Positions 7,360-64,000 of a stretch of 64,000 nt of DNA are shown here, in pieces. This stretch comes from an uncultured Candidatus Saccharibacteria bacterium. GTDB taxonomy: Bacteria > Patescibacteriota > Minisyncoccia > UBA6257. The translations under genes were made by a program, and so were the position numbers. The notes under the pieces were generated by a model that had not been told where the DNA came from, ran no database searches, and worked only from the letters and a program-made list of their open reading frames with translations. Location: the NCBI GenBank assembly GCA_964479005.1, contig CAYZJA010000001.1, positions 224,001 to 288,000 on the forward strand, given 5' to 3'. Each line of letters starts with the position of its first letter. The stretch's first letter is position 1.

Positions 7360-8481
7360 CTATCTATTTGCCATCCGTAATGTTTCTATTAGTCTCATCA
7401 TAAATCTTAAATTATGAATACTTGCTAAACGCAAATAAAGAGACTCTTTAACTGAATATAAGTGATGAAGGTAGGCTCTGGAAAAATTTTGACAAGTATA
7501 ACAATCACAGTTTTTATCAATAGGATTGTTATCATTCTCAAAGCGGTTGTTAGATATTCTTAAACATCCTTTTTCAAATTCTGACTCAAAACTATAGAGA
7601 GAACCATGCCGAGCTGTTCTTGTTGGTGCAACACAATCAAACATATCAACTCCCCTTTTTACAACTTCGATTATATCATAAGGTGAAGCGCCTAATCCCA
7701 TAGTATAGCGAGGTTTATTTTCTGGTAAAAAATCCTGCAAATAATCTAAAATCTCTAATGTTTTTGGCATATTATAACCAATTGTTTCTCCACCTAATGC
7801 GATTCCATCAAAAGGAAGACTGGTAATAAACTTGGTTGATTCTTTTCTTAAATCTTCAAAAATTCCTCCTTGAATAATTCCGAAAATCAAAGGCGGTTTT
7901 TGTCCTAAGCTTATACATTTTTTACTAAGTTCTTGATGTTTTTTTAATGACCTTTCTGCCCAGCGATGAGTTCTTTCCATTGATTTTTTCGCGTATTCTT
8001 TGTTATCAGAATCAGGACTGCATTCATCAAAAGCCATAATAATATCACAACCTAATTTATGTTGAATTTCTATTGATTTTTCAGGTGTAATTAGATGTTT
8101 TGACCCGTCAATTGGGGATGAAAATTCTACACCATTTTCACTGATTTTAGCTAACTTCTGCCCTTCTTTTGCTCTATTTTTAGCAAAGCTCCATACTTGA
8201 AACCCTCCAGAATCGCTCAGAATAGGCCCAGACCAGCCCATAAATCGATGAATGCCTCCTTGAGCATTAATTAGATCTTCCCCTGGCTGTAAGTGTAAAT
8301 GAAGCGTATTAACCAAGAGTATCTCTATACCAATTTTACTTAAATCATCAGGCCCAACTGCTTTAACAGTTGCTTGAGTTCCAGGCGGCATAAAAATTGG
8401 TGTTTTTACAATATCATGATTTGTTGATATTTCGCCCAAACGAGCTCTATCAACCTTAGATTTTTTAATAATTTTAAACAT
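7360..8481 (-). CDS. tgt: Queuine tRNA-ribosyltransferase
   Basis: The LSDSGGFQ motif and full-length similarity to Tgt are present. Confidence 0.9.
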   Translation of the reverse strand: MFKIIKKSKVDRARLGEISTNHDIVKTPIFMPPGTQATVKAVGPDDLSKIGIEILLVNTLHLHLQPGEDLINAQGGIHRFMGWSGPILSDSGGFQVWSFAKNRAKEGQKLAKISENGVEFSSPIDGSKHLITPEKSIEIQHKLGCDIIMAFDECSPDSDNKEYAKKSMERTHRWAERSLKKHQELSKKCISLGQKPPLIFGIIQGGIFEDLRKESTKFITSLPFDGIALGGETIGYNMPKTLEILDYLQDFLPENKPRYTMGLGASPYDIIEVVKRGVDMFDCVAPTRTARHGSLYSFESEFEKGCLRISNNRFENDNNPIDKNCDCYTCQNFSRAYLHHLYSVKESLYLRLASIHNLRFMMRLIETLRMANR

Positions 8482-18543: not shown

Positions 18544-18990
18544 TTATGGAAATATCCAATTGAGCAATTTGGTTTCTATCTTTTCCCGTAGCACAATGTT
18601 TTGAATTTTACCTATCAGCGAATTTTGAGAAAAAATGCATCCGTCAATCCTGGTTGCCTGACAAATAATTGCTCTCATCGGCTGTCTATAAATCTCCTTT
18701 GGATGTAAAAATTGATAATCGGATAATTTTATTATTTCATTTACTTTATCCTCGTAAAGCTTAGTTTTAGATAAGGGAATAGCAAATGCCATACTCTGAG
18801 ACCAAAAAGATTGATCCAGCCAAAGTATAATCGGTCTTGGTTTACCAATAACATTGCTCACTGTGTTATTTTGTCCGCAATAAGGACAAGAATAATTTGT
18901 AATAGAAAAATCCCTGCAACAGCGCGGATTAGAACATTTAATTGTTTCCGGAAATCTAGATATATAAATAATATCCCATTTGTGAAACAT
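18544..18990 (-). CDS. Uncharacterised Zn-ribbon protein, candidate toxin partner of the Panacea-domain gene
   Basis: A CSNPRCC...CPYC Cys4 cluster is present. The gene lies 4 nt downstream of the DUF4065 gene on the same strand. Confidence 0.45.
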   Translation of the reverse strand: MFHKWDIIYISRFPETIKCSNPRCCRDFSITNYSCPYCGQNNTVSNVIGKPRPIILWLDQSFWSQSMAFAIPLSKTKLYEDKVNEIIKLSDYQFLHPKEIYRQPMRAIICQATRIDGCIFSQNSLIGKIQNIVLREKIETKLLNWIFP

Positions 18991-18993
18991 ATT

Positions 18994-19521
18994 TTAAAAT
19001 GGCAAATCTTCTTTTTCTTCCGGCTCTGATTCCGTTTTTTTTGCAACATCCAAAATATCGTCCCTTTTTGATTCTTGAACAATTGGAAGTTTATAAACTA
19101 TATCAAGCAAATTTTGAAGACTAAGATTACCAAATGAATCAACGACTTCATCAATTATTAATAATTTTTCAGGGCCGAGCGATTTTAATAACTGTTCTTT
19201 TATAGAAACTTCCTTTTTTAAATAATATCTGGTATAGGATTTAGTTTCCTTTCTAGTTAAAGGAAACTTCTTTATTTCAATATACCCAATGTTAGAAAGA
19301 TGATTAGTATAATTGTCTAATTCTACTGTAAACGGGCCGTGTAAATATTTTTTGTATTCCATCACGGTAATTTTTTCTTTTAATCTCCGCATTGCTAAAA
19401 TATCACTCAAAAAAAGTAATTTTTGAAGATGGGTTTTACCGAGAATACCATCTAATCTTGAAATCAAATAAAAAACCACTGCGAGAGTATCTTTATCTAA
19501 CTTAGCTTCGCTTTTGACCAT
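18994..19521 (-). CDS. Panacea domain (DUF4065, SocA/GepA-like) antitoxin-like protein
   Basis: The KTHLQKLLFLSDILAMRR segment matches the conserved Panacea core. The protein is 175 aa. Confidence 0.65.
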   Translation of the reverse strand: MVKSEAKLDKDTLAVVFYLISRLDGILGKTHLQKLLFLSDILAMRRLKEKITVMEYKKYLHGPFTVELDNYTNHLSNIGYIEIKKFPLTRKETKSYTRYYLKKEVSIKEQLLKSLGPEKLLIIDEVVDSFGNLSLQNLLDIVYKLPIVQESKRDDILDVAKKTESEPEEKEDLPF

Positions 19522-19603
19522 AATATTGAACTTTCTTTATTTTAAGTATAGCCTAAAAAGAAAGTCAAGTAAACAAACCAGTAATAACTTTTCTTTCATA
19601 GAT

Positions 19604-19915
19604 TTATTTATTTTGCTCTTTCTTCGCTGAATTAAAAATATTAGCTTCTATCTTTTTCATTATTCTTCCGCCAATAGATATATAAACGATAAAGGCTAAA
19701 ACAATTGTTGTGATTCCAGCTATCCAAGAAAAAATAAAAAACGTAGTAATAATTAATATAATCCCTAAGATAATAAGGGAATTATTCCAAATCAAAACAT
19801 TTGGTTTTTTAGATAGAATCTTCTTGGACCAAGTATTATTAACAGTAATATAGGCAATAATCAATATTGATCCTAACAATAGTAAATAAAAGATATTTCC
19901 AAAAAATTCAAACAT
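19604..19915 (-). CDS. Small membrane protein
   Basis: Three hydrophobic helices are present. No domain was recognised. Confidence 0.45.
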   Translation of the reverse strand: MFEFFGNIFYLLLLGSILIIAYITVNNTWSKKILSKKPNVLIWNNSLIILGIILIITTFFIFSWIAGITTIVLAFIVYISIGGRIMKKIEANIFNSAKKEQNK

Positions 19916-20034
19916 AGATTTATTTTAACTTCTTTCGCCACGCCTAGTACCCATTGTTTATTCTACCAAAAAATCGCCTCTTTGGCGATTTCGATGTATC
20001 TCGGTCCCTCGATAAAAAAACTAGACGGCTGGGG

Positions 20035-20075
20035 GACTAGGATTCGAACCACTCGGGTCGTCCTATTGTCCCAAC
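20035..20075 (-). other. tRNA-like fragment with a T-arm-like sequence and a T-run; no cloverleaf
   Basis: The minus strand reads GGGACAATAGGACGACCCGAGTGGTTCGAATCCTAGTCCCCCAGCC, followed by TTTTTTT. The terminal 5-bp helix GGGAC/GTCCC pairs, but the T-stem does not. Confidence 0.3.
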
Positions 20076-53833: not shown

Positions 53834-54076
53834 CTATCTCTTTTTATAAATTTTACTGCTTCTATGTTCTATGCTTAAAATCTTTATAGAGTCATCTGTT
53901 TTGTAAATAATAATACGCATATCGCCTTTACGAATACGAAAAATATCCTTTCTTCCTTTTAATTTTTTCAAGTCTAAATTGCGAAAGTTATTTCTTTCTA
54001 TCCGAAGAAGAATACTCTTGAGTTTTTGTCTTTCTTTAAACCCTAATTTATTTAATGCTTTCTCAATCTTATCCAT
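53834..54076 (-). CDS. RelE/ParE-family toxin
   Basis: DIFRIRKGDMRIIIYKTDDSIKILSIEHR matches the YRIIY-type RelE/ParE core. Confidence 0.7.
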   Translation of the reverse strand: MDKIEKALNKLGFKERQKLKSILLRIERNNFRNLDLKKLKGRKDIFRIRKGDMRIIIYKTDDSIKILSIEHRSSKIYKKR

Positions 54077-54085
54077 GAAGTATAG

Positions 54086-54298
54086 TTATAGGCGTTGAAG
54101 CAATTCTTTCAGACTAATTCCTCCTTTTTTAATTTTAGTAAAGTCTATCACTTCTTCCCAATACTCTTCGTCAATTGGAGAAATTTTAAATAATGGTTTT
54201 GACTTTTTAAAAACCATAAAAGAGTGCCCTCTTTTAACTTTTTGGGCATATTCTTGCATATTTTCTCTCAAACTTTTAAGATTAATGATATTTTCCAT
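54086..54298 (-). CDS. Cognate antitoxin (Phd/YefM-like)
   Basis: A 70-aa ORF 9 nt upstream of the toxin gene on the same strand. Confidence 0.55.
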   Translation of the reverse strand: MENIINLKSLRENMQEYAQKVKRGHSFMVFKKSKPLFKISPIDEEYWEEVIDFTKIKKGGISLKELLQRL

Positions 54299-54410: not shown

Positions 54411-55007
54411 TTATTTAAATTTTTTTAAAATTTGAAAATCCTTTTGTAAAACTTCTTTCATATTTGGATTGTAAGTTGCTACAGCTGGATGGTAGAATGG
54501 AATAATTTTTATACTTTGGAAAAGAATTTTTGCTTCAAAAACTTTTCCGTGAATTTTGCTAATTGGTTCAATTACATCCTTCAAGCCAAACTTCTCCATT
54601 AAAAATTCCATTGAATATCTACCCAAAGAACAAATAACTTTTGGCTTAATCATTTCAATTTGTCTTTCTATATAAGGAACACAAGCTTCAATTTCTTCTT
54701 TCTGAGGGTCACGATTTTCAGGAGGTCTGTCTTTTAAAATATTGGTAATGTAAACATTTCCTCTTTTGATACTGACTGAATCCAAAAGGTCATCCAAAAT
54801 TCTTCCTGCTGCTCCACAGAAAGGTCGGCCAGTTTTAGCCTCCTGGAGTCCTGGCGCTTCACCAATAAATATTATTTTTGCTTGATGATTTCCTTCCCCA
54901 ATTACTGGATAGAATCCACTTTTAATCCGTTCTTCATAAAGAGAGCATTTTTTGCAATTTATAACCTCGTCCCTAATTTTTCTAAGCTCTGTTTCTAAAT
55001 CTTTCAT
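54411..55007 (-). CDS. Family 4 uracil-DNA glycosylase
   Basis: CKKC, GEAPG, PFCGAAG, YITNILK and HPA motifs are present. Confidence 0.85.
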   Translation of the reverse strand: MKDLETELRKIRDEVINCKKCSLYEERIKSGFYPVIGEGNHQAKIIFIGEAPGLQEAKTGRPFCGAAGRILDDLLDSVSIKRGNVYITNILKDRPPENRDPQKEEIEACVPYIERQIEMIKPKVICSLGRYSMEFLMEKFGLKDVIEPISKIHGKVFEAKILFQSIKIIPFYHPAVATYNPNMKEVLQKDFQILKKFK

Positions 55008-55042
55008 AATTTAATTAAACTTTAATTGTTTCTCCTGCTTTT

Positions 55043-55231
55043 TTATTGACTCCTCTTTTTGCCAATAGAAATGCCTAACCAGATACCAAGACCAAATAGT
55101 TCAATACCACCTAATATGGCATCGATTGTTGGTGAAAAAAAGTAACCTGTGTCGGACATTAAAAATCCAATTAATTGGACAATAACTATAACCACTATAA
55201 TTGCTATTATGATGCATGTTTGTTTTTTCAT
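55043..55231 (-). CDS. Small membrane protein
   Basis: Two TM helices are present. An upstream extended -10 TGATATAAT is also present. Confidence 0.4.
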   Translation of the reverse strand: MKKQTCIIIAIIVVIVIVQLIGFLMSDTGYFFSPTIDAILGGIELFGLGIWLGISIGKKRSQ

Positions 55232-55280
55232 AACTAAATTATATCACAAATTTGGGTCGGCGACCGAATTAGATAGCTCC

Positions 55281-55308
55281 GGGAACTGGACGATGTTAGA
55301 ACCTGTTT
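55281..55308 (-). promoter_or_regulatory. Conserved upstream motif (GGTTCTAACATCGTCCAGTTCCC on the minus strand)
   Basis: The motif is shared with 57613-57640 and partially with 57011-57027. It has the same core as the GTTCCAACATCGTTCC sites near 17-18 kb. Confidence 0.5.
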
Positions 55309-55375
55309 TATGTAGAAAAACGGGACCACCAAATTTCGTGCCAGCGAAACTAGCACGCTGCAGTTCCCCACTAAA

Positions 55376-56152
55376 TCACTTAATTATAAGAGGACCAATT
55401 TCTTCAGTAATGAACGGCGTTGACTCACTGAAATTATCTCTATTTATTAAAAGGAATGAGTTAGCAACTCTTTTACTTTCTCTGTCAAACTCAATTACTA
55501 TCAAATTTTGACTGTAAATTCTGATAACAGTTTTATTTGAGTTTAGTCCCAATAAAACGAAGGATTTCTGATTTAATGCTTCGCTCCTCCCCATATTGAA
55601 CGCAATTGAAAGTAAAACAAGAGATAGAAATAAGAATTGAAAAATTGAACGACCTATTTTTTCAATTATTCTACTGAACAAATCATTGGATATAACTTCT
55701 CTTTCAATTTTTTCTTGTGCTAAAAATTTTTCTTCCAATGTTTTTTTATCTTTTTGGAAAATAAATGGCCACAAAAACTCAATCATTAAAAGAACTGCTG
55801 CCACAATTAAAAGCCATAACGATTGTTTCCATGCTGTTTTGTAGATTAAAACCATAATAACTGCGTACGCCGTATACATTAAAGCAAAATTTCTACTTCT
55901 GCCAAGAGCCGTTTTAGTATTTAATAATCCCATTTGTGAAAAGATATTAAGCACAGTCAATAATAAAAACATCATTCCTAAGGTTGCTACCGCAGCAATT
56001 AAGATATTTGTTAAATTTAACTCTATTAATTGTGTAGGAATATGAAAATAACTTAAATATCCATACTCATAAAAGAAGGCCATCAAATAACCAAGTAATG
56101 AAGAGATTGCGACTAAGACAGCACCTGAAATAAAATTATAATTTTTATTCAT
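55376..56152 (-). CDS. Polytopic membrane protein
   Basis: Six TM helices are predicted. Confidence 0.5.
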   Translation of the reverse strand: MNKNYNFISGAVLVAISSLLGYLMAFFYEYGYLSYFHIPTQLIELNLTNILIAAVATLGMMFLLLTVLNIFSQMGLLNTKTALGRSRNFALMYTAYAVIMVLIYKTAWKQSLWLLIVAAVLLMIEFLWPFIFQKDKKTLEEKFLAQEKIEREVISNDLFSRIIEKIGRSIFQFLFLSLVLLSIAFNMGRSEALNQKSFVLLGLNSNKTVIRIYSQNLIVIEFDRESKRVANSFLLINRDNFSESTPFITEEIGPLIIK

Positions 56153-56240
56153 TGTCTAAGATTGAATATTGGATAATTTTTTAACTAGCCTATCATTTAA
56201 TAAAAATCTTCAAATTATAGTTATGTATTTAACCAATTAA

Positions 56241-56945
56241 CTATATAAATAGAATTCCGGATAAATATTGAGCTAGCATGAACAATAAACAAGAGATCAA
56301 AATCATTATATTTAATACCTTAATCGTTTTTATTATATTCAGACTAAATAATATACTAAGAAAAGTATAATAAGACATGTAAAGCATGACTAATAGAGAA
56401 TAAAAAGGTTTACCGAGTATAAGGATTGTAAATATGTAGCCTAAGACGCCAGCCATTATGTCTAAAAGTATCAAAATTAGTTTTTTCTTTTGTGGATACG
56501 CTAGTTGTAATTTAAGAGCGAAGTATACAAGAAAATAAACAGTTATAATAGCTATAGCAACTGAATTATAAAGGAAAATTAATCTTAATTCATTAGCAAA
56601 AACACTCTTTATAAATGAAAACAAACTACCTAAGAATATAATAATTCCAATACTTAATATTATGCCACCGATTGCATTCTCAAAAAGATTATCGACTGAG
56701 GTTTTGGCATATCTAATCCAGAAATCAATAATGCAGTAGCCAATAAGTAACCCAAAAATTAACAGCAACAGGCATTGCAACATTCTCAGCGATTCAGTTT
56801 GATACTGATTTATTTGTAGAAATAAACTAGCTATGATGCCTGTAAATCCAATTATATCTATTAGCCATTTTCTATCAGAATAATATAATTTGAAGATTTC
56901 TTTTGGTCTAGATATTATTTCTCCCATTTTCTCATCACGTCTCAT
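56241..56945 (-). CDS. Polytopic membrane protein
   Basis: Six TM helices are predicted. Confidence 0.5.
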   Translation of the reverse strand: MRRDEKMGEIISRPKEIFKLYYSDRKWLIDIIGFTGIIASLFLQINQYQTESLRMLQCLLLLIFGLLIGYCIIDFWIRYAKTSVDNLFENAIGGIILSIGIIIFLGSLFSFIKSVFANELRLIFLYNSVAIAIITVYFLVYFALKLQLAYPQKKKLILILLDIMAGVLGYIFTILILGKPFYSLLVMLYMSYYTFLSILFSLNIIKTIKVLNIMILISCLLFMLAQYLSGILFI

Positions 56946-57034
56946 ATAATTTATATTAATTGATTAAAATCATTCTAATTTCTTATTTATAATCACCTAT
57001 TGGAATAAACAATGTTAGAACCTGTTTAGTGGAT

Positions 57035-57565
57035 TCAATTTAAAATTTGTCCTAAACCTTTCCAGGCTTTCAGTAAAAAATTAATTAATCCTAAATAATA
57101 TTCACTCAAAAGAAAACCAAAAAGAACACTGAGAATTGCGACTTTAATTATTAAGTGAATATTCTTAAGTTCTTGCTCTTGTTTTTCTGTCTTATATCCT
57201 CTTTTTTTATAATCAAATAACTCCGGCTTCACTTTTAACATTAGTCCGTAAATTTTTTCAAATTCTTCTTCTATCCAGTTAAACCTATCAATATCTTTCT
57301 GCACTTCTCCAAAATCAGGTATAGCTACTGAATGTTTAGTTATTTTTTCCACTAATTCCTGGTCAATAAGAAACTTAACTGTATAAACAACATCCTCTAA
57401 TGGCTCTAACGAATTTTTATTATATTTGTGAAGAGGAAGTCCCTCTTTTAATTCTTTTTCTACAAAATAATTTAAACCTTCTTCATTCAATAAACGATAA
57501 ACAAGGGCTTCTCTTTTTTCTAATAATAAATTAATAAAATCTTCGTTTATCTTCATATTATCCAT
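57035..57565 (-). CDS. Hypothetical protein with a C-terminal TM anchor
   Basis: The start ATG is directly abutted by a GGTAGAAT extended -10-like motif. Confidence 0.5.
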   Translation of the reverse strand: MDNMKINEDFINLLLEKREALVYRLLNEEGLNYFVEKELKEGLPLHKYNKNSLEPLEDVVYTVKFLIDQELVEKITKHSVAIPDFGEVQKDIDRFNWIEEEFEKIYGLMLKVKPELFDYKKRGYKTEKQEQELKNIHLIIKVAILSVLFGFLLSEYYLGLINFLLKAWKGLGQILN

Positions 57566-57684
57566 ATTCTACCAAAAAACCGCCTCTTTTACGAGACGAT
57601 TCTTCTTAAAAAAATCCGCTCTGGGAACTGGACGATGTTAGAACCTGTTTTGGATAATAAAAATCTACAACATATAGTAAATCT

Positions 57685-58002
57685 TCAATTATCTTTGGGA
57701 ATTTTTATTGTCTTTTTCCCTCTTTCCTTTCTCTTTTTTTTTGACTTTCTTCCACTCAATGCCCATTCAAGCCATTCTTTTTTCTCTATTCCAGACTGCC
57801 TGATCATTGTTCTAAGAGTTAATTCTGGATAAGACTTCGCATTTGTATTAAAATTTATTTCTACTATTTTATCATCTCCACTACTAATCCAAACCTTCCA
57901 ATCATCATGAGAACCATCTTTAGATTTAAAAAAACTAAAACCGTGAGATTTTAGAAAATTAATAACATCTTTATATGACCAATTACGAAATCTTCTTGGC
58001 AT
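57685..58002 (-). CDS. HicA-like toxin (YcfA family)
   Basis: KDVINFLKSHGFSF...DGSHDDW and the C-terminal TLRTMIRQSGI parallel the HicA consensus. Confidence 0.55.
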   Translation of the reverse strand: MPRRFRNWSYKDVINFLKSHGFSFFKSKDGSHDDWKVWISSGDDKIVEINFNTNAKSYPELTLRTMIRQSGIEKKEWLEWALSGRKSKKKRKERGKKTIKIPKDN

Positions 58003-58011
58003 AACTTAAAA

Positions 58012-58374
58012 TTAAGCCAAACAACCAACCAAAGCAGGAATGGAGTTAGGGTTGTATTTAAGTTGCTTAGCCGATTCCAACCTGACTCGTGTAAGCTTTT
58101 GTTCTTTAATCTTTTTCTGAAATTCAAAATATTTATCCCAAAACTCTTGGGGTGCATAACGATTTAGTAAATCATCAGAAAGTTGTTTTCTGCAAACAGT
58201 TTTAAGATGAAGAATAGCTGCCTCTTCTACACTTTTCATTACTTCAATTGAGTTGTCACCTTCTTCAATAATATCAAAAGTAAGACAGACTCCAACGAAT
58301 TTATCTCCACTTGAATAACCAAAAAATTCCATTAAACCTCTTCGTTTAGTGTTTTTAGGTCTCAATATTTTCAT
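58012..58374 (-). CDS. HicB-like antitoxin (UPF0150-like)
   Basis: YSSGDKFVGVCLTFDIIEEGDNSIEVMKSVEEAAILHL resembles the HicB N-terminal fold. It sits immediately upstream of the HicA-like gene. Confidence 0.5.
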   Translation of the reverse strand: MKILRPKNTKRRGLMEFFGYSSGDKFVGVCLTFDIIEEGDNSIEVMKSVEEAAILHLKTVCRKQLSDDLLNRYAPQEFWDKYFEFQKKIKEQKLTRVRLESAKQLKYNPNSIPALVGCLA

Positions 58375-58547
58375 TTTTAAAAATTAATTAAAATAGATTG
58401 TTTAAAGTATAACAATACAAGTCAATAAGTCAATATCTGATAAATCGTCAGAAAATGTCCTTAAGAAGGTATGGCTGGACGAAGTTAGAATTCATATTTC
58501 TTTAGGATTCCAATTTCCATCTTTATCGAAATCACTTGTTCAAATAT

Positions 58548-59789
58548 TTACAAAATGGGATTTTTCTTTTCTAGTAAATCCTTAACTGTGATTAGCCTTA
58601 TTTCTAACTCCTTCTTATTTTTAATCCTTGCTACTTCCTCGTAAGCACCCTTAGTAAAACTAAAAGCTACAATATAACCCTTTTTATAATTTGCCCTTTT
58701 TAGGGCAGTCTCAAAATTATCTATAACATTACGCCCTACTTTATCAGACTGCTTTACCTGTATTCCTGCTTCTTCAGTTAAAACACTCCTTGGGTAATAA
58801 CCATCTAGCCCCATATCCCCAACTTTCTTTCTGCTCGCATTAGCCCTCATTTTGTCTATCACTACCCAGTTTTGAAACTCAAAAGGTTCTAATTTTTTTA
58901 CTTCCTCTATTGTAGTCGGCATACCAATCACTTCATAATCAATACCCTCTATCGTTCCTAAAGTTTTTCCTAATCTTCGTTGCATTATCTTGATTGCTGT
59001 TGGTGAAATATCTATTCCTATCCACCTTCTACCCAATCGTTGAGCTACAGCTACTGTTGTTCCGCAACCACAAAAAGCGTCTAAAACTATATCATTTTTG
59101 TTTGAGGACGCCTCTATTATTCTTTTTAAAAGTGCTTCTGGTTTTTGGGTGGGATAACCTACTCGCTCTTCTGCCATTGGATTTATTACGGGTATATTCC
59201 ATACATCTTCCACCATTTTCCCTAACGGATTACCTTCCCACTTATAGACTTTCTTTTTTCCACCTGGTCTTCTAATAGCGACTTCGTCTTTTAGTTCTCG
59301 GCAGTATTCTTCCTTAAGACTCGGTTCATTATAATTAAAAGTCCAATTATCTCCTTTTGTATAAAAATAAATTGTATCGTGTTTTCTTGGAAACCTTGTT
59401 TTACTTTGTCCGCCGCCCTTATAAGCCCAAATAATCTCATTTCTAAAATTTTCTACCCCAAATATCTCATCTAACATAATTCTTATATGAGCGTTGGCAT
59501 GCCAATCGCAATGTATGTAAAAAGAGCCTGTAGATTTCAATATCTCATACAATGCTTGAACTCTTGGTTTAAGCCAACTAATATAATTTTCTGTTCCGCC
59601 CTCCCATCTATCTTTAAAACTTCTAATCTCCGCCTCATCGCCAAATACAACTTCATACTGTTTATGAGTAAAAAATGGCGGGTCAATATAAATCAGATCT
59701 ATACTCTCTTTAGGAAGTTTAGCTAACTCTTCTAAATTATCGCCGCAAATAAGTTTGTTAATCTGCCAAAGTTTATTCTGATTAGACAT
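58548..59789 (-). CDS. DNA methyltransferase (DPPF-motif N6-adenine/N4-cytosine class) with a ~130-aa C-terminal extension
   Basis: DPPF (motif IV) and FCGCGTT (motif I) are present in beta-class order. The C-terminus carries D...E.K-like residues (GDMGLDGYY...IQVKQ). Confidence 0.8.
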   Translation of the reverse strand: MSNQNKLWQINKLICGDNLEELAKLPKESIDLIYIDPPFFTHKQYEVVFGDEAEIRSFKDRWEGGTENYISWLKPRVQALYEILKSTGSFYIHCDWHANAHIRIMLDEIFGVENFRNEIIWAYKGGGQSKTRFPRKHDTIYFYTKGDNWTFNYNEPSLKEEYCRELKDEVAIRRPGGKKKVYKWEGNPLGKMVEDVWNIPVINPMAEERVGYPTQKPEALLKRIIEASSNKNDIVLDAFCGCGTTVAVAQRLGRRWIGIDISPTAIKIMQRRLGKTLGTIEGIDYEVIGMPTTIEEVKKLEPFEFQNWVVIDKMRANASRKKVGDMGLDGYYPRSVLTEEAGIQVKQSDKVGRNVIDNFETALKRANYKKGYIVAFSFTKGAYEEVARIKNKKELEIRLITVKDLLEKKNPIL

Positions 59790-59794
59790 AGTAG

Positions 59795-59940
59795 GGATGG
59801 GTTTTAATTTTTATGCTTATATTTACTGGCTGGAAACACAAAGCTCCCCGCCAACGACAACCTTTCGGTCGCCCTATACCTTTCGGTATAGACCCATCCC
59901 TGAGCTCTGACGAGGAGCTTAATATCAGGGATGGGTTTTT
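59795..59940 (-). promoter_or_regulatory. Structured leader upstream of the methyltransferase with three AGGGATGGGT sites
   Basis: Two direct copies (59797, 59927) and one inverted copy (59891) of AGGGATGGGT are present. Minus-strand hairpins include CTATACC-GAAA-GGTATAG and a long stem ACCCATCCCTGA/TCAGGGATGGGT. Confidence 0.45.
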
Positions 59941-60134
59941 TATGCCATATCCTATATTAGAACTTAGGCAACTTTGATTATTTAGTTTTTACAATTAAAG
60001 AATAACATAAATTGATAAAAAGGGAAGCAGAATTGTACCCTCGTTAATTATATTAATCAATCACCATTTTAGCTTTATTTAGTCATATTTTATTGCTAAA
60101 ATAGGGTTGAATAAGACATAATTATATTATTTAT

Positions 60135-60968
60135 ATGACTGACAAAAAAATGCAAGGATGGCTCTCAGAGGCTAAAAATCCTAAAATAGAGCAAACAATA
60201 AGACTTCTAAAAATTAATAAAGAATTTTTAAAGGATGTAGCTGTTTTACGAAAAAAATGGCCTAGTTTTATAGAAAAACATAAAACAGCAATAGATAAAA
60301 TTATAATAGAACTAATAAAAATGGCTTATCAAGGATTCTTGAAGAAAGAAAAACCTTCCGATGTCGTTGAAAAAGCAAAAAAAAAGAATTTATTTCGCTC
60401 TGAAGAGCCAACTAAAGAAAATCTCTTTACCGCCAACACTAAATTTAATCAAGATATATTAGATCTATGTGAAAAATACAAACTCTATCCTATTAGTCTT
60501 TGGCGATATAGGGTAGCTATTTTTATTGTAACTAATGATTTTTCTATTTCTAATAAATTAGCAGGAATGGATTTAGCAAAATATTTATCTCCAGAAGAAA
60601 TAAGCCAAATTCCTGAAGATATGAATTTTAGTCTTAAAATCGAAAAAAATAAAGATACCAAGGAACTAGAGTTATTCATTCAAGTATATGAAACTACATC
60701 TTTACGAGATTTGAAAAAATATTGGCATATGGTAAAACATTCTCAAGATAAGCTAAAAAAGGCCAAAAAGATAGACAAAAGATACTATCCTAAAAAAGGT
60801 CTAGAAACTGCAGAAAAGTTATTCACATTAGATAAAACTAAATCAAAGTCTGATTGGGAAAAACATGATGCTATATATGGAGAACCTACTTCTTCTAGTA
60901 AAAAAGACGGGGAAAAAGAAACCAAAAAAACTAAAAATTTAAAAAGAATTAGGTATCGATATAAATAG
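60135..60968 (+). CDS. Hypothetical protein (lysine-rich)
   Basis: A long ORF with no recognised domain. Confidence 0.45.
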   Translation: MTDKKMQGWLSEAKNPKIEQTIRLLKINKEFLKDVAVLRKKWPSFIEKHKTAIDKIIIELIKMAYQGFLKKEKPSDVVEKAKKKNLFRSEEPTKENLFTANTKFNQDILDLCEKYKLYPISLWRYRVAIFIVTNDFSISNKLAGMDLAKYLSPEEISQIPEDMNFSLKIEKNKDTKELELFIQVYETTSLRDLKKYWHMVKHSQDKLKKAKKIDKRYYPKKGLETAEKLFTLDKTKSKSDWEKHDAIYGEPTSSSKKDGEKETKKTKNLKRIRYRYK

Positions 60969-61127
60969 ATTTTTAAATTCGTAATTTGGGCTCATATCTT
61001 GAGACCAGTTTAAATTAGCAATTTTGTATAATAACTCCAGAGATAATCTGGAGTTTTATGTTATTAAGCAAAAAAGCAATTAAGGAATTTAAAACGATCT
61101 ATACCCGAAAATTTCATCAGGATATAG

Positions 61128-61514
61128 ATGACAAAACTGCTCAGGAAATGGCTAAAAGGCTCCTCCTGCTCTTTAAAATTGTCTATAAGCCCCCAACTAA
61201 TAAACAATCAACTAAATATGACTAACGATAAATCTTATAATAATCTTAAAAAATGCCCTCGTTTTGATAGGTGCAATCAAAATTTATGTCCTCTTGATAT
61301 AAGGCTTTCATTAAGAATCGGAGGATCTGCTGAAAAATGTCGCTGGATGAGACCCCCTTCGAAGAAAACTATTCATGGTAAGGTCTTTATATCAGGAGGG
61401 CAGGTTATGCCAGATGGTTTATTGAATTTTGTGCCTGAGAGCAATTTAGAGTGGCTTAATACCCCCTCTAAAAAAAGATGGTTAGAAATTAAAAAAAATG
61501 AAACAAAATCCTAA
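61128..61514 (+). CDS. Hypothetical Cys-containing protein
   Basis: A CPRFDRCNQNLCPLD cluster is present. Confidence 0.4.
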   Translation: MTKLLRKWLKGSSCSLKLSISPQLINNQLNMTNDKSYNNLKKCPRFDRCNQNLCPLDIRLSLRIGGSAEKCRWMRPPSKKTIHGKVFISGGQVMPDGLLNFVPESNLEWLNTPSKKRWLEIKKNETKS

Positions 61515-62019
61515 TACTAAATTGAAGCTTAGACCTTTACGTCTCAGGGGTGTCCCTTTTGCTTGGCAGGATACTAGATTAATCCCAAAAATCCGAGAGC
61601 ATTTTCATAAAGAAAAGCTTACAACTGCCCTTGCTTTATACTTTGTTTTAACAGAACTTGCTAGTATTGAAGGAAAAGGACAAGGAAAACATATAAATTG
61701 TTTAAAGGCATATCTAAAAACAATAGCAGATCGTTGTGGTAAATCGGTATCAACAACCAAAAGATATCTCAAGGATTTTAAAAAATACAAAATTATATCC
61801 TGGAACAATCGTCGTAAAGGATTGATGAATTTATCAAATGAATGGTTATTACTTCATTATTACCAGCCCACTAATGAACGTACCTCTATTCATAATGATA
61901 AACCTGTTATAAAGAATTATATAAAAAGAAGTTTTATTAATAATAAAAGGAATTATAAAAATGATAAAGATAAAGGGTTCGTTCCTATTAAGGAAATCAT
62001 TGGCCGGAAGTATAAATAA
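61498..62019 (+). CDS. Winged-helix DNA-binding protein (replication initiator / replisome organiser-like)
   Basis: LALYFVLTELAS...SVSTTKRYLKDFKKYKIISW resembles HTH regions of plasmid or phage Rep and DnaD-like proteins. Confidence 0.4.
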   Translation: MKQNPNTKLKLRPLRLRGVPFAWQDTRLIPKIREHFHKEKLTTALALYFVLTELASIEGKGQGKHINCLKAYLKTIADRCGKSVSTTKRYLKDFKKYKIISWNNRRKGLMNLSNEWLLLHYYQPTNERTSIHNDKPVIKNYIKRSFINNKRNYKNDKDKGFVPIKEIIGRKYK

Positions 62020-62030
62020 GCTTGTAAATT

Positions 62031-62058
62031 TAAGGGGGGGTATAGGGGGGTTCGCGCG
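62031..62058. repeat. G-run / alternating CG tract (GGGGGGGTATAGGGGGGTTCGCGCGCGCGAGG)
   Basis: A very GC-rich 28-mer in a window that is roughly 30 percent GC. Confidence 0.5.
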
Positions 62059-62264
62059 CGCGAGGAATAATAAAAGATTTGCATAACAGTTGCAGTTGAT
62101 TTTCATAAAGCAAAAGAGATATAATAAAATATTGACCCAGATACCTCACAGGGAATCAATCTAGCGATAATGTCCTTAAAGGGGCGGTCTATACCAGTAT
62201 TGCTGGATCCTTGTGAAACAGTGGGGCTGGGTCAATTATAGGCCGTCCCTTTAATTCTAAATTT

Positions 62265-63860
62265 ATGGAACAAATAACATCAAAAATTAAATATTTTCTT
62301 TATGCAAGAAAATCATCTGAATCTGAAGATAGACAGGTAGCTTCAATTGATTCACAAATAAAAGAATTAACTGGGGTAGCTAAGAAAGAAAAGCTAAAAA
62401 TCATTGATGTTCTCACTGAATCTCAGTCAGCAAAGGCACCAGGAAGAAGCCAGTTTAATGATATGATCCAGAGAATCTCCAAAGGAGAAGCCCAGGGAAT
62501 TTTATGTTGGAAGCTGGATAGATTAGCCAGAAACCCTATCGATGGCGGAAATATCATGTGGTTACTTCAGAGTAATACAATAAAACATATCAAAACATAC
62601 AATAGGGATTATTATCCTACTGATAATGTTTTGATGATGAGTGTAGAATTTGGCATGGCAAATCAGTTTATAAGAGATCTGAGTGAAAATACAAAGAGAG
62701 GGCTAAGAGCAAAGGCAGAAAAAGGATGGTATCCTACCTATGCCTCTTTAGGTTATATGCATAATCCTTTAAAAAGAAAAGGAGAAAAAGAAATTATTAA
62801 AGACCCGGAAAGGTTTGATCTTATAAGAAAGATATTTGATTTAATGCTTACTGGTTGCTATACACCGCCTAAAATTTTAAAAATCGCTACTGAGAAATGG
62901 GGATTAAAAAATAAGCAAGGAGGAAAAGTTGCCAGAAGTACTGTTTATAGAATACTAACTGATCCATTTTATTATGGTCAATTTGAATATCCAAAAGAAA
63001 GTGGAAATTGGTATAAGGGCAAACATAAACTTATGATAACTCTAGAAGAATATGACAAAATTCAAATTTTACTTGGGAGAAAAGGTAAACCTCGATCTAA
63101 AACGCATACTTTCGCTTTTACCGGAATGATTAGATGTAGCGAATGCGAAGCAATGATTACAGCCGAAGAAAAAATTAAAATACAAAAAAACGGAAATATT
63201 CATAAATATATTTATTATCATTGCACCAAGAAAAAAGATTCTCATTGCTCCCAAAAATCTATAGAACAAAAAGAATTAGAAAAACAAATCCTGGATATTT
63301 TGGGTGGAATTGAAATTCCTCCAGAATTTCATCAATGGGCAATGAAGTGGATACAAATTGAAAATAAAAAAGAAAGTAAAGCAAGGAACCAAATTATAGT
63401 AAACCATCAAGAAAGCTATAAAAAATGTTTAAAGAGAATTGATAATCTTATTGATATGAGATCTGCTGAGGATATAACGAAAAAAGAATTTCTGAGAAAA
63501 AAATCGGAGTTAAGTCAGGAAAAGATTCGATTAGAAGAATTACTCGCGGATACAGGAAACAGAATTAATAAACAATTAGAGAAAGCTGAGGAAGCATTTT
63601 TATTTGCTGAAAAAGCTAAAGAAAGATTTGAAAATGGAGACATCAAAGACAAAAAAGAAATTCTAACAGCCCTAGGTTCGAACCTCATTTTAAAAGATAA
63701 AAAGCTAAGTATAACAATACAAAAACCACTTTTCCTTATTGAAAAAGTGGCCAAACAGGTTAAAGCAATTAATCAAAGGTTAGAACCTCTGAAAAACCGC
63801 ATAACAAATAACGAATTGGAGGAAATCTATCTTCAAAATCCTACGTTGCTCCGCGGGTAG
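62265..63860 (+). CDS. Large serine recombinase (integrase)
   Basis: The N-terminal resolvase catalytic motif YARKSSESEDRQVASIDSQ is present. A recombinase domain, a zinc ribbon CSECEA...YYHCTKKKDSHC and a C-terminal coiled coil follow. Confidence 0.85.
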   Translation: MEQITSKIKYFLYARKSSESEDRQVASIDSQIKELTGVAKKEKLKIIDVLTESQSAKAPGRSQFNDMIQRISKGEAQGILCWKLDRLARNPIDGGNIMWLLQSNTIKHIKTYNRDYYPTDNVLMMSVEFGMANQFIRDLSENTKRGLRAKAEKGWYPTYASLGYMHNPLKRKGEKEIIKDPERFDLIRKIFDLMLTGCYTPPKILKIATEKWGLKNKQGGKVARSTVYRILTDPFYYGQFEYPKESGNWYKGKHKLMITLEEYDKIQILLGRKGKPRSKTHTFAFTGMIRCSECEAMITAEEKIKIQKNGNIHKYIYYHCTKKKDSHCSQKSIEQKELEKQILDILGGIEIPPEFHQWAMKWIQIENKKESKARNQIIVNHQESYKKCLKRIDNLIDMRSAEDITKKEFLRKKSELSQEKIRLEELLADTGNRINKQLEKAEEAFLFAEKAKERFENGDIKDKKEILTALGSNLILKDKKLSITIQKPLFLIEKVAKQVKAINQRLEPLKNRITNNELEEIYLQNPTLLRG

Positions 63861-63878
63861 GATTCGAACCTACAACCT
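63851..63878 (-). other. tRNA 3'-fragment (T-arm GTAGG-TTCGAAT-CCTAC plus acceptor strand) overlapping the recombinase stop codon
   Basis: The minus strand reads GGTTGTAGGTTCGAATCCTACCCGCGGAG. No complementary 5' acceptor strand is found within the next 90 nt. Confidence 0.45.
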
Positions 63879-64000
63879 ACTGGTTACACCTAATCTCTAA
63901 GTTTCCTTAAAGGGTGGACTATATCTTCACCTTGTCTGTTTAAAACAGATTTAGGTGTCTCGGTATCTAGTCTCTACGGCGCCCCCGTGTTATAACACAA

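Follow-up and report, generated by a model that had tools for sequence, protein, structure and literature searches.

The right-hand end of the DNA analysed here, a stretch of 64,000 nucleotides from an uncultured Candidatus Saccharibacteria bacterium (contig CAYZJA010000001.1, positions 224,001 to 288,000; called the window in the following), most probably carries a small integrative element of a Patescibacteria genome, a group also known as the candidate phyla radiation (CPR). The element would extend from about 57618 to 63852, and the large serine recombinase (LSR) that it encodes would have placed it right at the 3' end of a tRNA-Asn(GUU) gene. From the sequence comparisons described below, this reading is given a probability of about 80%. 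An integrated element at a tRNA gene, with an LSR at the tRNA-proximal end, had already been proposed from the window alone. That part of the original prediction is retained, but the mechanism suggested with it, an attachment (att) site duplication leaving an orphan tRNA fragment, is not. Loci on other contigs are designated by L numbers, and the features of the window are listed in Table 1.

The recombinase gene and the intron-split tRNA-Asn gene

The protein encoded at 62265-63860 is an LSR according to its domain set. The open reading frame (ORF) of 531 aa is intact, and its earlier assignment was correct. A YARKSS motif is found close to the N-terminus, which matches the Pfam family Resolvase (PF00239, E 3.9e-21, residues 11-154). 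Recombinase (PF07508, residues 182-269) and Zn_ribbon_recom (PF13408, residues 285-344) were both detected above the curated cutoffs, and about 185 residues remain C-terminal of the zinc ribbon. PHROG family 95 'integrase' was matched with 2.4e-67, and PDB entries 3g13 and 3guv are among the phmmer matches. The stop codon TAG (63858-63860) is located inside CCGCGGGTAGGATTCGAACCTAC (63851-63873), as had been noticed before. This sequence occurs a single time in the window, with 0 occurrences expected by chance, and represents on the minus strand a T-arm plus the 3' strand of an acceptor. The final LSR codons, CTC CGC GGG TAG, are the antisense of the tRNA acceptor and T-stem, and LSR and tRNA gene overlap by 12 nt.

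The tRNA-Asn gene at the LSR end is complete and split by an intron, only the last 114 nt of which fall inside the window. In 62000-64000, Rfam recognized a group I intron whose 3' part occupies 63895-64000 on the minus strand; it is cut by the window end and scores 30.4 bits. At locus L001 of the 551,616-bp JGI parent contig, which is identical to the window over 11,736 bases except for one mismatch, the complete intron (L001:11631-11856) reached 64.4 bits compared to an Rfam gathering score of 50. When the 5' exon TCCGCGGTAGCTCAATGGTAGAGCGTCTGGCTGT was joined to 63886-63849, a canonical tRNA-Asn(GTT) with U1-A72 and G73 was obtained by ARAGORN. The cmscan alignment contains a P1 U·G wobble at the splice site, and the wobble and the terminal G fit an insertion between positions 35 and 36; a register shifted by 2 nt would give Thr(tgt), the call made by ARAGORN in its intron mode. 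In the default mode, ARAGORN called no tRNA at the LSR stop. CCA is not encoded in this tRNA-Asn, which ends GAG-CAA. A tmRNA 3' end, the first idea for the tRNA-like piece, was ruled out by the group I intron match.

The missing 5' half on which the original prediction was built is only apparent because of the intron and the window edge; the 5' exon lies beyond both. The sequence at the LSR stop is neither an orphan 3' fragment nor a regenerated att duplicate, but the 3' exon of a complete, intron-containing tRNA-Asn gene. A complete tRNA had been regarded beforehand as an argument against an insertion. The tRNA is complete, but this does not refute integration.

Group I introns at position 35/36 of tRNA-Asn and tRNA-Asp have been reported from Patescibacteria, where standard tRNA finders miss such genes, and self-splicing in vitro was demonstrated for other members (PMC13011429). 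The window intron shares the tRNA, the insertion site and the phylum with them and shows no material difference; it is an independent and already described feature. Recombinases are not mentioned in PMC13011429. Close relatives differ in the intron at this tRNA-Asn locus. It is absent from L089 (10597-10669), L094-97 and L101 (3291-3363), has 520-524 nt and contains a 105-aa ORF (HNH, E 0.0018) in L100:11584-12176, L179:5529-6121 and L182:243-839, and measures 224 nt without an ORF in the window copy (L001:11585-11880). T-arm and acceptor of the intron-less genes in L089 and L094-97 are identical to those of the window. The anticodon stem differs on both strands, TCTGG/CCAGT with the intron versus GCACG/CGTGA without it, as if flanking exon sequence had travelled with the intron.

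An insertion of the duplication type, with an orphan tRNA 3' fragment at the LSR and an intact tRNA plus a long att copy elsewhere, has to be judged against these results. It would account for the T-arm and acceptor sequence overlapping the LSR stop and for the failure of ARAGORN to find a tRNA there by default, and a distant relative (L054:650-7500; LSR 39% identical) harbors a 6.8-kb element whose ends are marked by a direct repeat, 19 bp of the tRNA-Asn 3' end. The orphan part is refuted by the complete gene, however. Moreover, the second tRNA att copy that had been expected was not detected in the 64 kb, either with a 23-mer allowing up to 3 mismatches or by blastn-short, and the two junctions have only the 5-bp core GCTCC in common, as expected for a serine rather than a tyrosine recombinase. 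Scanning the relatives for direct repeats between the tRNA and the 6 kb upstream yielded L054 as the only positive case, and the long-repeat model was therefore abandoned. A duplication-type insertion is considered extremely improbable. The L054 host is GC-rich, and the cargo there includes oxidoreductase-like ORFs and a 452-aa ORF that resembles, by eye, a copper-containing nitrite reductase.

Occupied and empty sites, related recombinases and predicted attachment sites

Relatives of the host were located via two flanking genes, dcd for dCTP deaminase and the uracil-DNA glycosylase (UDG) gene at 54411-55007. Two of these loci represent an empty and a filled site. L182 reads ...CCTACCCGCGGAGC|AGAGTTTTATAATTATCCC... 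from the tRNA-Asn gene onwards, with UDG 170 nt further. In L181, the sequence is ...AAACAGGTTCTAACATTGTCCAGTTCCCGGAGC|AGAGTTTTATAATTATCCC..., the flank is identical to that of L182, the same UDG protein is encoded, and there is no tRNA before the flank. Both sequences diverge exactly at GGAGC, where the L181 flank is joined to a conserved arm of 27 nt. The breakpoint is therefore placed within GGAGC, that is GCTCC on the plus strand of the window (63848-63852).

In relatives with flanks that are about 85-90% identical, other DNA or nothing is present between tRNA-Asn and UDG. L089, with flanks of 88-90% nucleotide identity, lacks the block, and its intron-less tRNA-Asn is followed by thiolase-ACP-ackA-pta genes. 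At the same position, an LCM methyltransferase and small-ORF cassettes are found in L094-97, and dcd is separated from UDG by 4.5 kb of other genes in L179. A variable island, 55008-63848 in the window, is enclosed by conserved flanks, which consist of dcd and tRNA-Asn at one end and of UDG-UDG-Band_7 at the opposite end. The view that this is accessory rather than core DNA is confirmed by the relatives without the block (L182, L089, L094-97, and L179). A gene order conserved as core, which would have spoken for the opposite, was not observed: L182 is empty, and the others contain unrelated DNA.

The core UDG gene precedes the island, which begins at about 55.0 kb and not at about 53 kb as first proposed. 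A gene pair at 53834-54298 with weak Pfam similarity to ParE_toxin (E 0.009) and Phd/YefM (E 0.085) lies between two family-4 UDG genes, which are adjacent in L179-L182, and is a separate small insertion between these core genes. The RelE/antitoxin genes ascribed to the island correspond to this pair, whose matches to toxin/antitoxin families are weak and which lies outside the island. In L179 (5490-6121), tRNA-Asn lies the other way round with respect to dcd, and its 3' end, with the GCTCC core, points to the dcd terminator, an arrangement that suggests an inversion at the att core.

Recombinases related to the LSR are frequent. At least 155 were found in species-representative genomes, mostly Patescibacteria metagenome-assembled genomes, with identities of 38-76%, and more than 456 in metagenome contigs. 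To count overlaps with tRNA genes, only loci with at least 90 nt beyond the LSR ORF were used; a further 26 contigs stop less than 90 nt past it. A complete tRNA on the opposite strand, convergent with the recombinase, overlapped or abutted the LSR stop in 48 of 66 genome loci and in 52 of 69 metagenome loci, about 100 of 135 in both sets together. Asn is the commonest target, with or without intron, the others being Gln, His, Trp, Ser, Glu, Ala, Val, Arg, Tyr, Lys, and Gly. The conserved C-terminal LSR codons for ...(S/N)PT(L/M)L always end a fixed few bases ahead of the tRNA discriminator. Serine integrases have been called 'not known for targeting tRNA genes', with 14 of 297 computational cases (Mageeney et al. 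2020, PMC7192596), and an LSR is carried by 27 of 937 tRNA-associated Prochlorococcus elements (bioRxiv 10.1101/2020.12.28.424599). A literature search revealed no paper on such tRNA-end serine-recombinase elements in Patescibacteria.

Comparison of the junctions revealed two types of arm, differing in the spacing between the core and a T-loop motif. The distance is 10 nt at every tRNA-adjacent relative (B-type) and 15 nt at P-type arms. In structural work on LI integrase, attP half-sites 5 bp longer than those of attB are reportedly a hallmark of large serine integrases. The window contains two copies of the L181 arm (27-33 nt), at 57618 and 55276, both left of the LSR and oriented alike. In a scan of the window with a position weight matrix (PWM), all strong matches were on the plus strand, the best match on the reverse strand reached 13.7 bits, and nothing above 10 bits was detected between 57650 and 62265. 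The 15-nt spacing is enriched upstream of recombinases: over 53 loci (371 kb), the combination of core, 15 nt and T-loop-like motif was found 23 times in forward and 8 times in reverse orientation, compared to 0-7 times at other spacings. Arrays of the P-type arm are present in L094, L099, L100, L143, and L181.

In at least 11 distinct relatives, the LSR end is directly followed by a 15-nt-spaced arm instead of a tRNA (L008, L015, L037, L112/114/118, L123, L133, L139, L148, L174, and L177; L010 is uncertain). The LSR ORF in these relatives is extended by 10-45 aa with a conserved (D/N)(D/A)(V/F)RT tail, and the arm at 57618 would likewise encode a recombinase tail, ELDDVRTCFG. The tRNA-less loci are read as unrecombined attP (P'|P) within the LSR ORF, and stand-alone P arms as distal junctions (B'|P). 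On this basis, attP of the window element is predicted as ...CCTACGTTGCTCCGGGAACTGGACGATGTTAGAACC... with the junction CAAAATCCTACGTTGCTCCGGGAACTGGACGATGTTAGAACCTGTTTTGG, and the empty site as TTCTTAAAAAAATCCGCTCCGCGGGTAGGATTCGAACCTAC. The integrated LSR ends with ...NPTLLRG; the excised form is predicted to have 541 aa and to end with ...NPTLLRELDDVRTCFG. In the tRNA trailer, CCA is encoded at the empty site (GAGCCACG, L094) as opposed to GAGCAACG at the occupied site.

Two Logan assemblies from different runs, L002 and L003, both break at 63874, 22 nt past the att core; L002 starts at 59855. The break may be due to strain variants in the variable loop of the tRNA and not to recombination. 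As 63874 is off the att core, Logan contig ends were not used as att evidence.

Combining these data, the following course of events is proposed. The attB site would consist of the T-arm and acceptor of the tRNA (B arm, with TTCGAAC 10 nt from the core) and the tRNA 3' flank (B'). The attP site would be contained in the 3' end of the LSR ORF, P' being the codons for ...NPTLL and P the next approximately 27 nt, GGGAACTGGACGATGTTAGAAC, with the T-loop-like TTAGAAC 15 nt from the core. Strands would be exchanged inside the 5-bp core GCTCC at tRNA positions 70-74, where the exact crossover presumably falls. The tRNA body would remain host-derived and intact, only its 3' trailer being altered from the encoded CCA to CAA. 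The LSR would lose its last approximately 10 codons to the far end of the element at 57618, the putative left boundary. Serial integration and decay would then produce a row of P arms and, bordered by tRNA-Asn and the core UDG gene, the variable island (55008-63848), with a restriction-modification (R-M) gene, a HicA-like pair and LOOT RNA in a cargo slot, and expression of the LSR would probably be governed by a pseudoknotted leader.

Core module, cargo, leader and mobility

Three sister elements, L099, L100, and L101, reside at tRNA-Asn of related hosts and encode LSRs that are 89-91% identical. The window is about 82% identical to them in nucleotide sequence from 60030-60049 to the tRNA, a core module of 3.85 kb, and blastn detected nothing further left. 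Within the module, the ORFs of 277, 55, and 98 aa have no Pfam or PHROG match, and the winged-helix Rep-like gene announced earlier, the 173-aa ORF, shows this similarity only weakly (HTH_Crp_2 E 0.006; PHROG about 1e-4). No two sister elements have the same R-M system in the cargo slot. Left of the module, as far as the nearest P arm, these are Vsr and a C5 methylase in L099, and a C5+N6 methylase fusion and an HNH nuclease in L100; in the window, the slot is occupied by an N6/N4 methylase-Mrr fusion and the HicA-like pair. Homologues of the methylase are located upstream of 11 other related recombinases. The methyltransferase had been predicted and is solid (N6_N4_Mtase E 1e-56), being fused to Mrr_cat. 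For the proposed HicAB genes, one ORF is HicA-like (PHROG 1.9e-6; Pfam 5.9e-4, below cutoff), but the partner has no match.

A LOOT RNA precedes the methyltransferase gene on its strand, 66 nt ahead of the start. In related loci, LOOT was found at gathering level in 6 of 12 by Rfam, always antisense to the LSR and 2.2-4.8 kb upstream of it, and in 16 loci by nhmmer. LOOT is not described in the main text of Weinberg 2017. A LOOT hairpin strand, ACCCAUCCCU, is repeated right before the methyltransferase start, which results in a direct repeat AGGGATGGGTTTT on the plus strand at 59791 and 59929 (59786-59940). Because of this repeat, the LOOT 3' strand could pair with the ribosome-binding region of the methylase, which suggests a cis role of LOOT in the window copy.

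The limits of the element, 57618-63852 (6.2 kb), follow from the PWM matches and the P-arm model. A smaller mobile unit is conceivable, consisting only of the core module with four small ORFs and the LSR (about 59.85/60.03-63.85 kb, 3.85-4.0 kb); the methyltransferase, the HicA-like pair and LOOT would then be remnants of earlier insertions. The start of homology between window, L099 and L100 at 60030-60049 fits this alternative, as do a 4,020-bp Logan contig spanning exactly 59855-63874 and a weak core-plus-15 match at 59843 (7.7 bits). That match is no better than random top matches, however, its 'T-loop' being the terminal hairpin of LOOT, and the Logan contig ends off the att core. The left edge of the module has no P arm in the three sisters, but a strong P arm is present past the R-M genes in each of them, and related recombinases are repeatedly preceded by R-M or methyltransferase genes. 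A unit restricted to the core module is regarded as quite unlikely, and the 6.2-kb element is preferred.

Between the stop of the 173-aa ORF and the LSR promoter, a G7-TATA-G6-TT-(CG)5 tract, GGGGGGGTATAGGGGGGTTCGCGCGCGCG (62034-62062), is 100% conserved in the four sister elements, compared to about 82% identity of the coding DNA; it is the G-run/CG tract seen before and might serve as a terminator, as an origin or for the binding of a protein. Where the module begins on its left, ahead of the 277-aa ORF, L099 (7816-7861) and L100 (7815-7860) contain a perfect 13-bp inverted repeat, GCTTTATTTAGTC...GACTAAATAAAGC, which is degenerate in the window (60085-60127) and may be an operator or a divergent promoter.

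The spacer of 245 nt ahead of the LSR is 90% identical among the four sister elements, above their coding DNA. Transcription is predicted to start near 62133, and within the spacer, a leader was detected directly upstream of the LSR start in 17 loci, with nhmmer and subsequently a covariance model, and no match was obtained in Rfam. Helix P1 is 98% paired with 5 compensatory pairs. It corresponds to the inverted repeat of the original prediction, which exists, but with a start one base off. Helix A is 92.6% paired, compared to 66% in shuffled sequences (0 of 500 as high) and 35-47% in slid controls, and 17 of its 18 pairs are compensatory with changes on both sides; these counts lean towards the model, as the alignment was fitted to it, but, independently of it, the duplex was observed in each of the sequences. 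A P3 hairpin proposed by RNAalifold was dropped in favor of the long-range helix A, for which covariation is far better. Helix A crosses P1 and P2, giving an H-type pseudoknot. The leader appears to be a conserved, covarying pseudoknotted RNA, and a cis-regulatory role in LSR expression seems likely.

Several observations weigh against the 6.2-kb element or its mobility. The left 2.4 kb belong to it only through the position of the P arm, because homology to the sisters stops at 60030, and the distal core is GCTCT and not GCTCC, a mismatch of one base. GC content and skew, suggested as a check, do not reveal a compositional island, GC being that of the rest of the genome and the skew flip merely mirroring gene orientation. 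Signs of a circular form, another proposed check, were not found in contigs or in IMG/VR: none of 62 whole short contigs is circular, the predicted attP junction is absent from IMG/VR, a protein search in IMG/VR retrieved no LSR relative, and the sole P-arm match there (L183) has no recombinase close by. All contigs with an identical recombinase or methyltransferase show the integrated arrangement. A recombination directionality factor was not identified, and the rule of a 5-bp half-site offset is taken from published LSR structures. In addition, unrecombined P'|P LSRs without an adjacent tRNA are present on apparently chromosomal contigs of 54-409 kb (L010, L037, and L139; LSR matches ending near 7545, 7584, and 11593, respectively), L139 having a second P arm 9.8 kb downstream. 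These could be episomes, tandem arrays or another mode of residence, and the att model leaves them unexplained. Finally, the element is about 82% identical to its sisters and the host flanks are 85-89% identical; the divergence is similar, and a long vertical residence is possible.

This similar divergence, the core mismatch and the lack of an excised form in contigs and IMG/VR would also suit a fossil, that is an ancient, fixed and immobile insertion with an LSR kept for another role such as inversion or resolution in the island, and the inverted tRNA-Asn of L179, suggesting inversions at the locus, points in the same direction. On the other hand, the 531-aa ORF is intact, strong selection, both purifying and compensatory, acts on the leader RNA, the cargo slot varies between sister elements, and presence or absence of the block does not track host kinship, L089 (flanks 88-90%) being without it and L100 (85-87%) having it. 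A fossil is judged unlikely, and an integrative element that may still be mobile at present is favored.

Table 1. Positions of the tRNA, recombinase, att, leader and cargo features
Feature	Position	Strand	Basis
Family-4 UDG, first core gene past island	54411-55007	-	87-89% identical in relatives
Second P-type arm: GCTCC + 15 nt + TTAGAAC	55276-55302	+	PWM 36 bits
Older cassette, three membrane-protein ORFs (55376-56152, 56241-56945, 57035-57565), no recombinase	55276-57617	- (ORFs)	P arm at 55276
Predicted distal junction, P-type arm: core GCTCT, 15 nt, TTAGAAC	57618-57650	+	PWM 30 bits
HicA-like ORF, 105 aa	57685-58002	-	HicA_toxin E 5.9e-4 (below cutoff); PHROG toxin 1.9e-6
Partner of HicA-like ORF, 120 aa	58012-58374	-	no family match
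N6/N4 DNA methyltransferase-Mrr nuclease fusion, 413 aa	58548-59789	-	Pfam: N6_N4_Mtase 1e-56, Mrr_cat 8e-9
LOOT RNA (Rfam RF03000)	59856-59970	-	72.1 bits, gathering 46.4, model positions 1-121
Start of conserved core module including promoter/inverted-repeat region	60030-62019	+	blastn to sisters
ORF, 277 aa	60135-60968	+	tblastn homologues next to relatives
ORF, 55 aa	61058-61225	+	tblastn homologues next to relatives
ORF, 98 aa	61218-61514	+	tblastn homologues next to relatives
ORF, 173 aa, weakly winged-helix/Rep-like	61498-62019	+	HTH_Crp_2 E 0.006; PHROG replication-initiation, DnaD-like about 1e-4
Structured LSR leader	62140-62264	+	covariance model, 17 loci
Leader helix A	62146-62154 + 62160-62168 with 62199-62216	+	covariation
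Leader helix P1 (inverted repeat)	62176-62187 with 62243-62254	+	covariation
Leader helix P2	62194-62197 with 62227-62230	+	leader model
LSR, 531 aa	62265-63860	+	intact ORF, Pfam and PHROG
Common core GCTCC (tRNA-sense GGAGC, positions 70-74), B arm/P' arm junction	63848-63852	+	L182/L181 divergence; same core at distal arms
3' exon of tRNA-Asn(GUU), position 36 to discriminator G73	63849-63886	-	in-silico splice, ARAGORN
B-type arm: 10 nt GCGGGTAGGA, then TTCGAAC (T-loop reverse complement)	63853-63869	+	spacing comparison
3' part of 224-nt group I intron (tRNA position 35/36)	63887-64000, on to window-equivalent 64110	-	Rfam RF00028
5' exon of tRNA-Asn TCCGCGGTAGCTCAATGGTAGAGCGTCTGGCTGT	window-equivalent 64111-64144, 111 nt past window end	-	parent contig L001

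A second island without a recombinase was noticed at 17303-20052. It contains three plus-strand P-type arms (17303, 17749, and 18423; 22-24 bits, cores GCTGG or GCTAC) and, at 20027-20052, a true orphan tRNA 3' fragment, GGCTGGGGGACTAGGATTCGAACC, which comprises the T-loop, the 3' strand of the T-stem and the acceptor UCCCCCA-G-CC. The fragment is of the tRNA-Gln(UUG) type and has no 5' part. A 13-mer at 20038, considered as a second copy of tRNA-Asn, belongs to this Gln-type fragment. The region appears to be what remains, after decay, of an element of this family that targeted tRNA-Gln.

Significance and comparison with known systems

Beyond the single element, the data hint at an undescribed LSR clade, with the at least 155 genome and more than 456 metagenome matches mentioned above, mostly in Patescibacteria. 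As a tentative proposal, which we hold with less than even confidence, its members would be specialists for tRNA 3' ends that recognize the universal T-loop as outer motif and the acceptor as core, and carry attP in their own ORF so that the C-terminal tail is swapped. Serial insertions would build R-M-rich islands beside tRNAs in genomes of about 0.5 Mb, with a new pseudoknotted leader as control element and LOOT as recurrent passenger. Large-DNA genome engineering relies mainly on serine integrases. These are regarded as avoiding tRNA targets, to which the clade would be an exception. Its rule would be predictable, the T-loop being at +10 (attB) or +15 (attP) and the core at the acceptor end, and it could provide enzymes for near-universal sites. 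The islands would also illustrate a route by which defence genes are gained and lost in ultra-small CPR genomes. LOOT, an RNA family without known role, gains a concrete genomic setting, and the LSR leader is a well-supported candidate for a structured RNA. For annotation, caution is advisable, since a 'tRNA fragment' by an integrase may be an intron-split and fully functional tRNA.

Phage-type LSRs such as phiC31, Bxb1 and the A118/LI integrase have the same architecture of resolvase, recombinase and zinc-ribbon domains, and likewise use short att sites with a tiny core and P-type half-sites longer by 5 bp than those of the B type, which would correspond to the 15 versus 10 nt deduced here from sequence. 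Unlike these enzymes, the window LSR appears to target a tRNA 3' end, with the T-loop as outer recognition motif and attP within its own ORF. Its carrier also differs, being a non-phage element of 6-8 kb in Patescibacteria hosts, in which no capsid or terminase genes were seen.

The element resembles the tycheposons of Prochlorococcus (bioRxiv 10.1101/2020.12.28.424599) most closely. These are likewise small and cargo-bearing with a tRNA-proximal integrase, which is an LSR in a minority of them (27 of 937), and their islands grow beside a tRNA and keep att remnants of earlier insertions. Hallmark genes of tycheposons are missing from the window element, for which Pfam and PHROG gave no match to a tyrosine recombinase, primase or helicase and which has only the weak winged-helix/Rep-like ORF; it would work like a tycheposon but is not classed as one. 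Further differences are that the remnants are pieces of the recombinase tail (P arms) and not partial tRNAs, and that the cargo serves restriction-modification and not nutrient uptake.

Staphylococcal cassette chromosome (SCC) elements are inserted by the LSRs CcrAB or CcrC at the 3' end of rlmH, which stays functional, and form composite arrays with repeated short att sites. The logic is the same here, but the target is a tRNA, a single recombinase gene is present and spans attP, and the element is much smaller. In tRNA islands and prophages of tyrosine integrases (P4/Islander-type), the integrase gene also abuts an intact tRNA 3' end and the insert is present or absent in relatives. The enzyme family is unrelated, however, and a 5-bp core contrasts with a duplicated tRNA segment of 15-60 bp. 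In the fusellovirus SSV1, attP is located within the ORF of a tyrosine recombinase, and integration into a tRNA gene splits the integrase gene into two large parts. The position of attP in the ORF would be alike in the window LSR, but only the last approximately 10-45 codons would be swapped.

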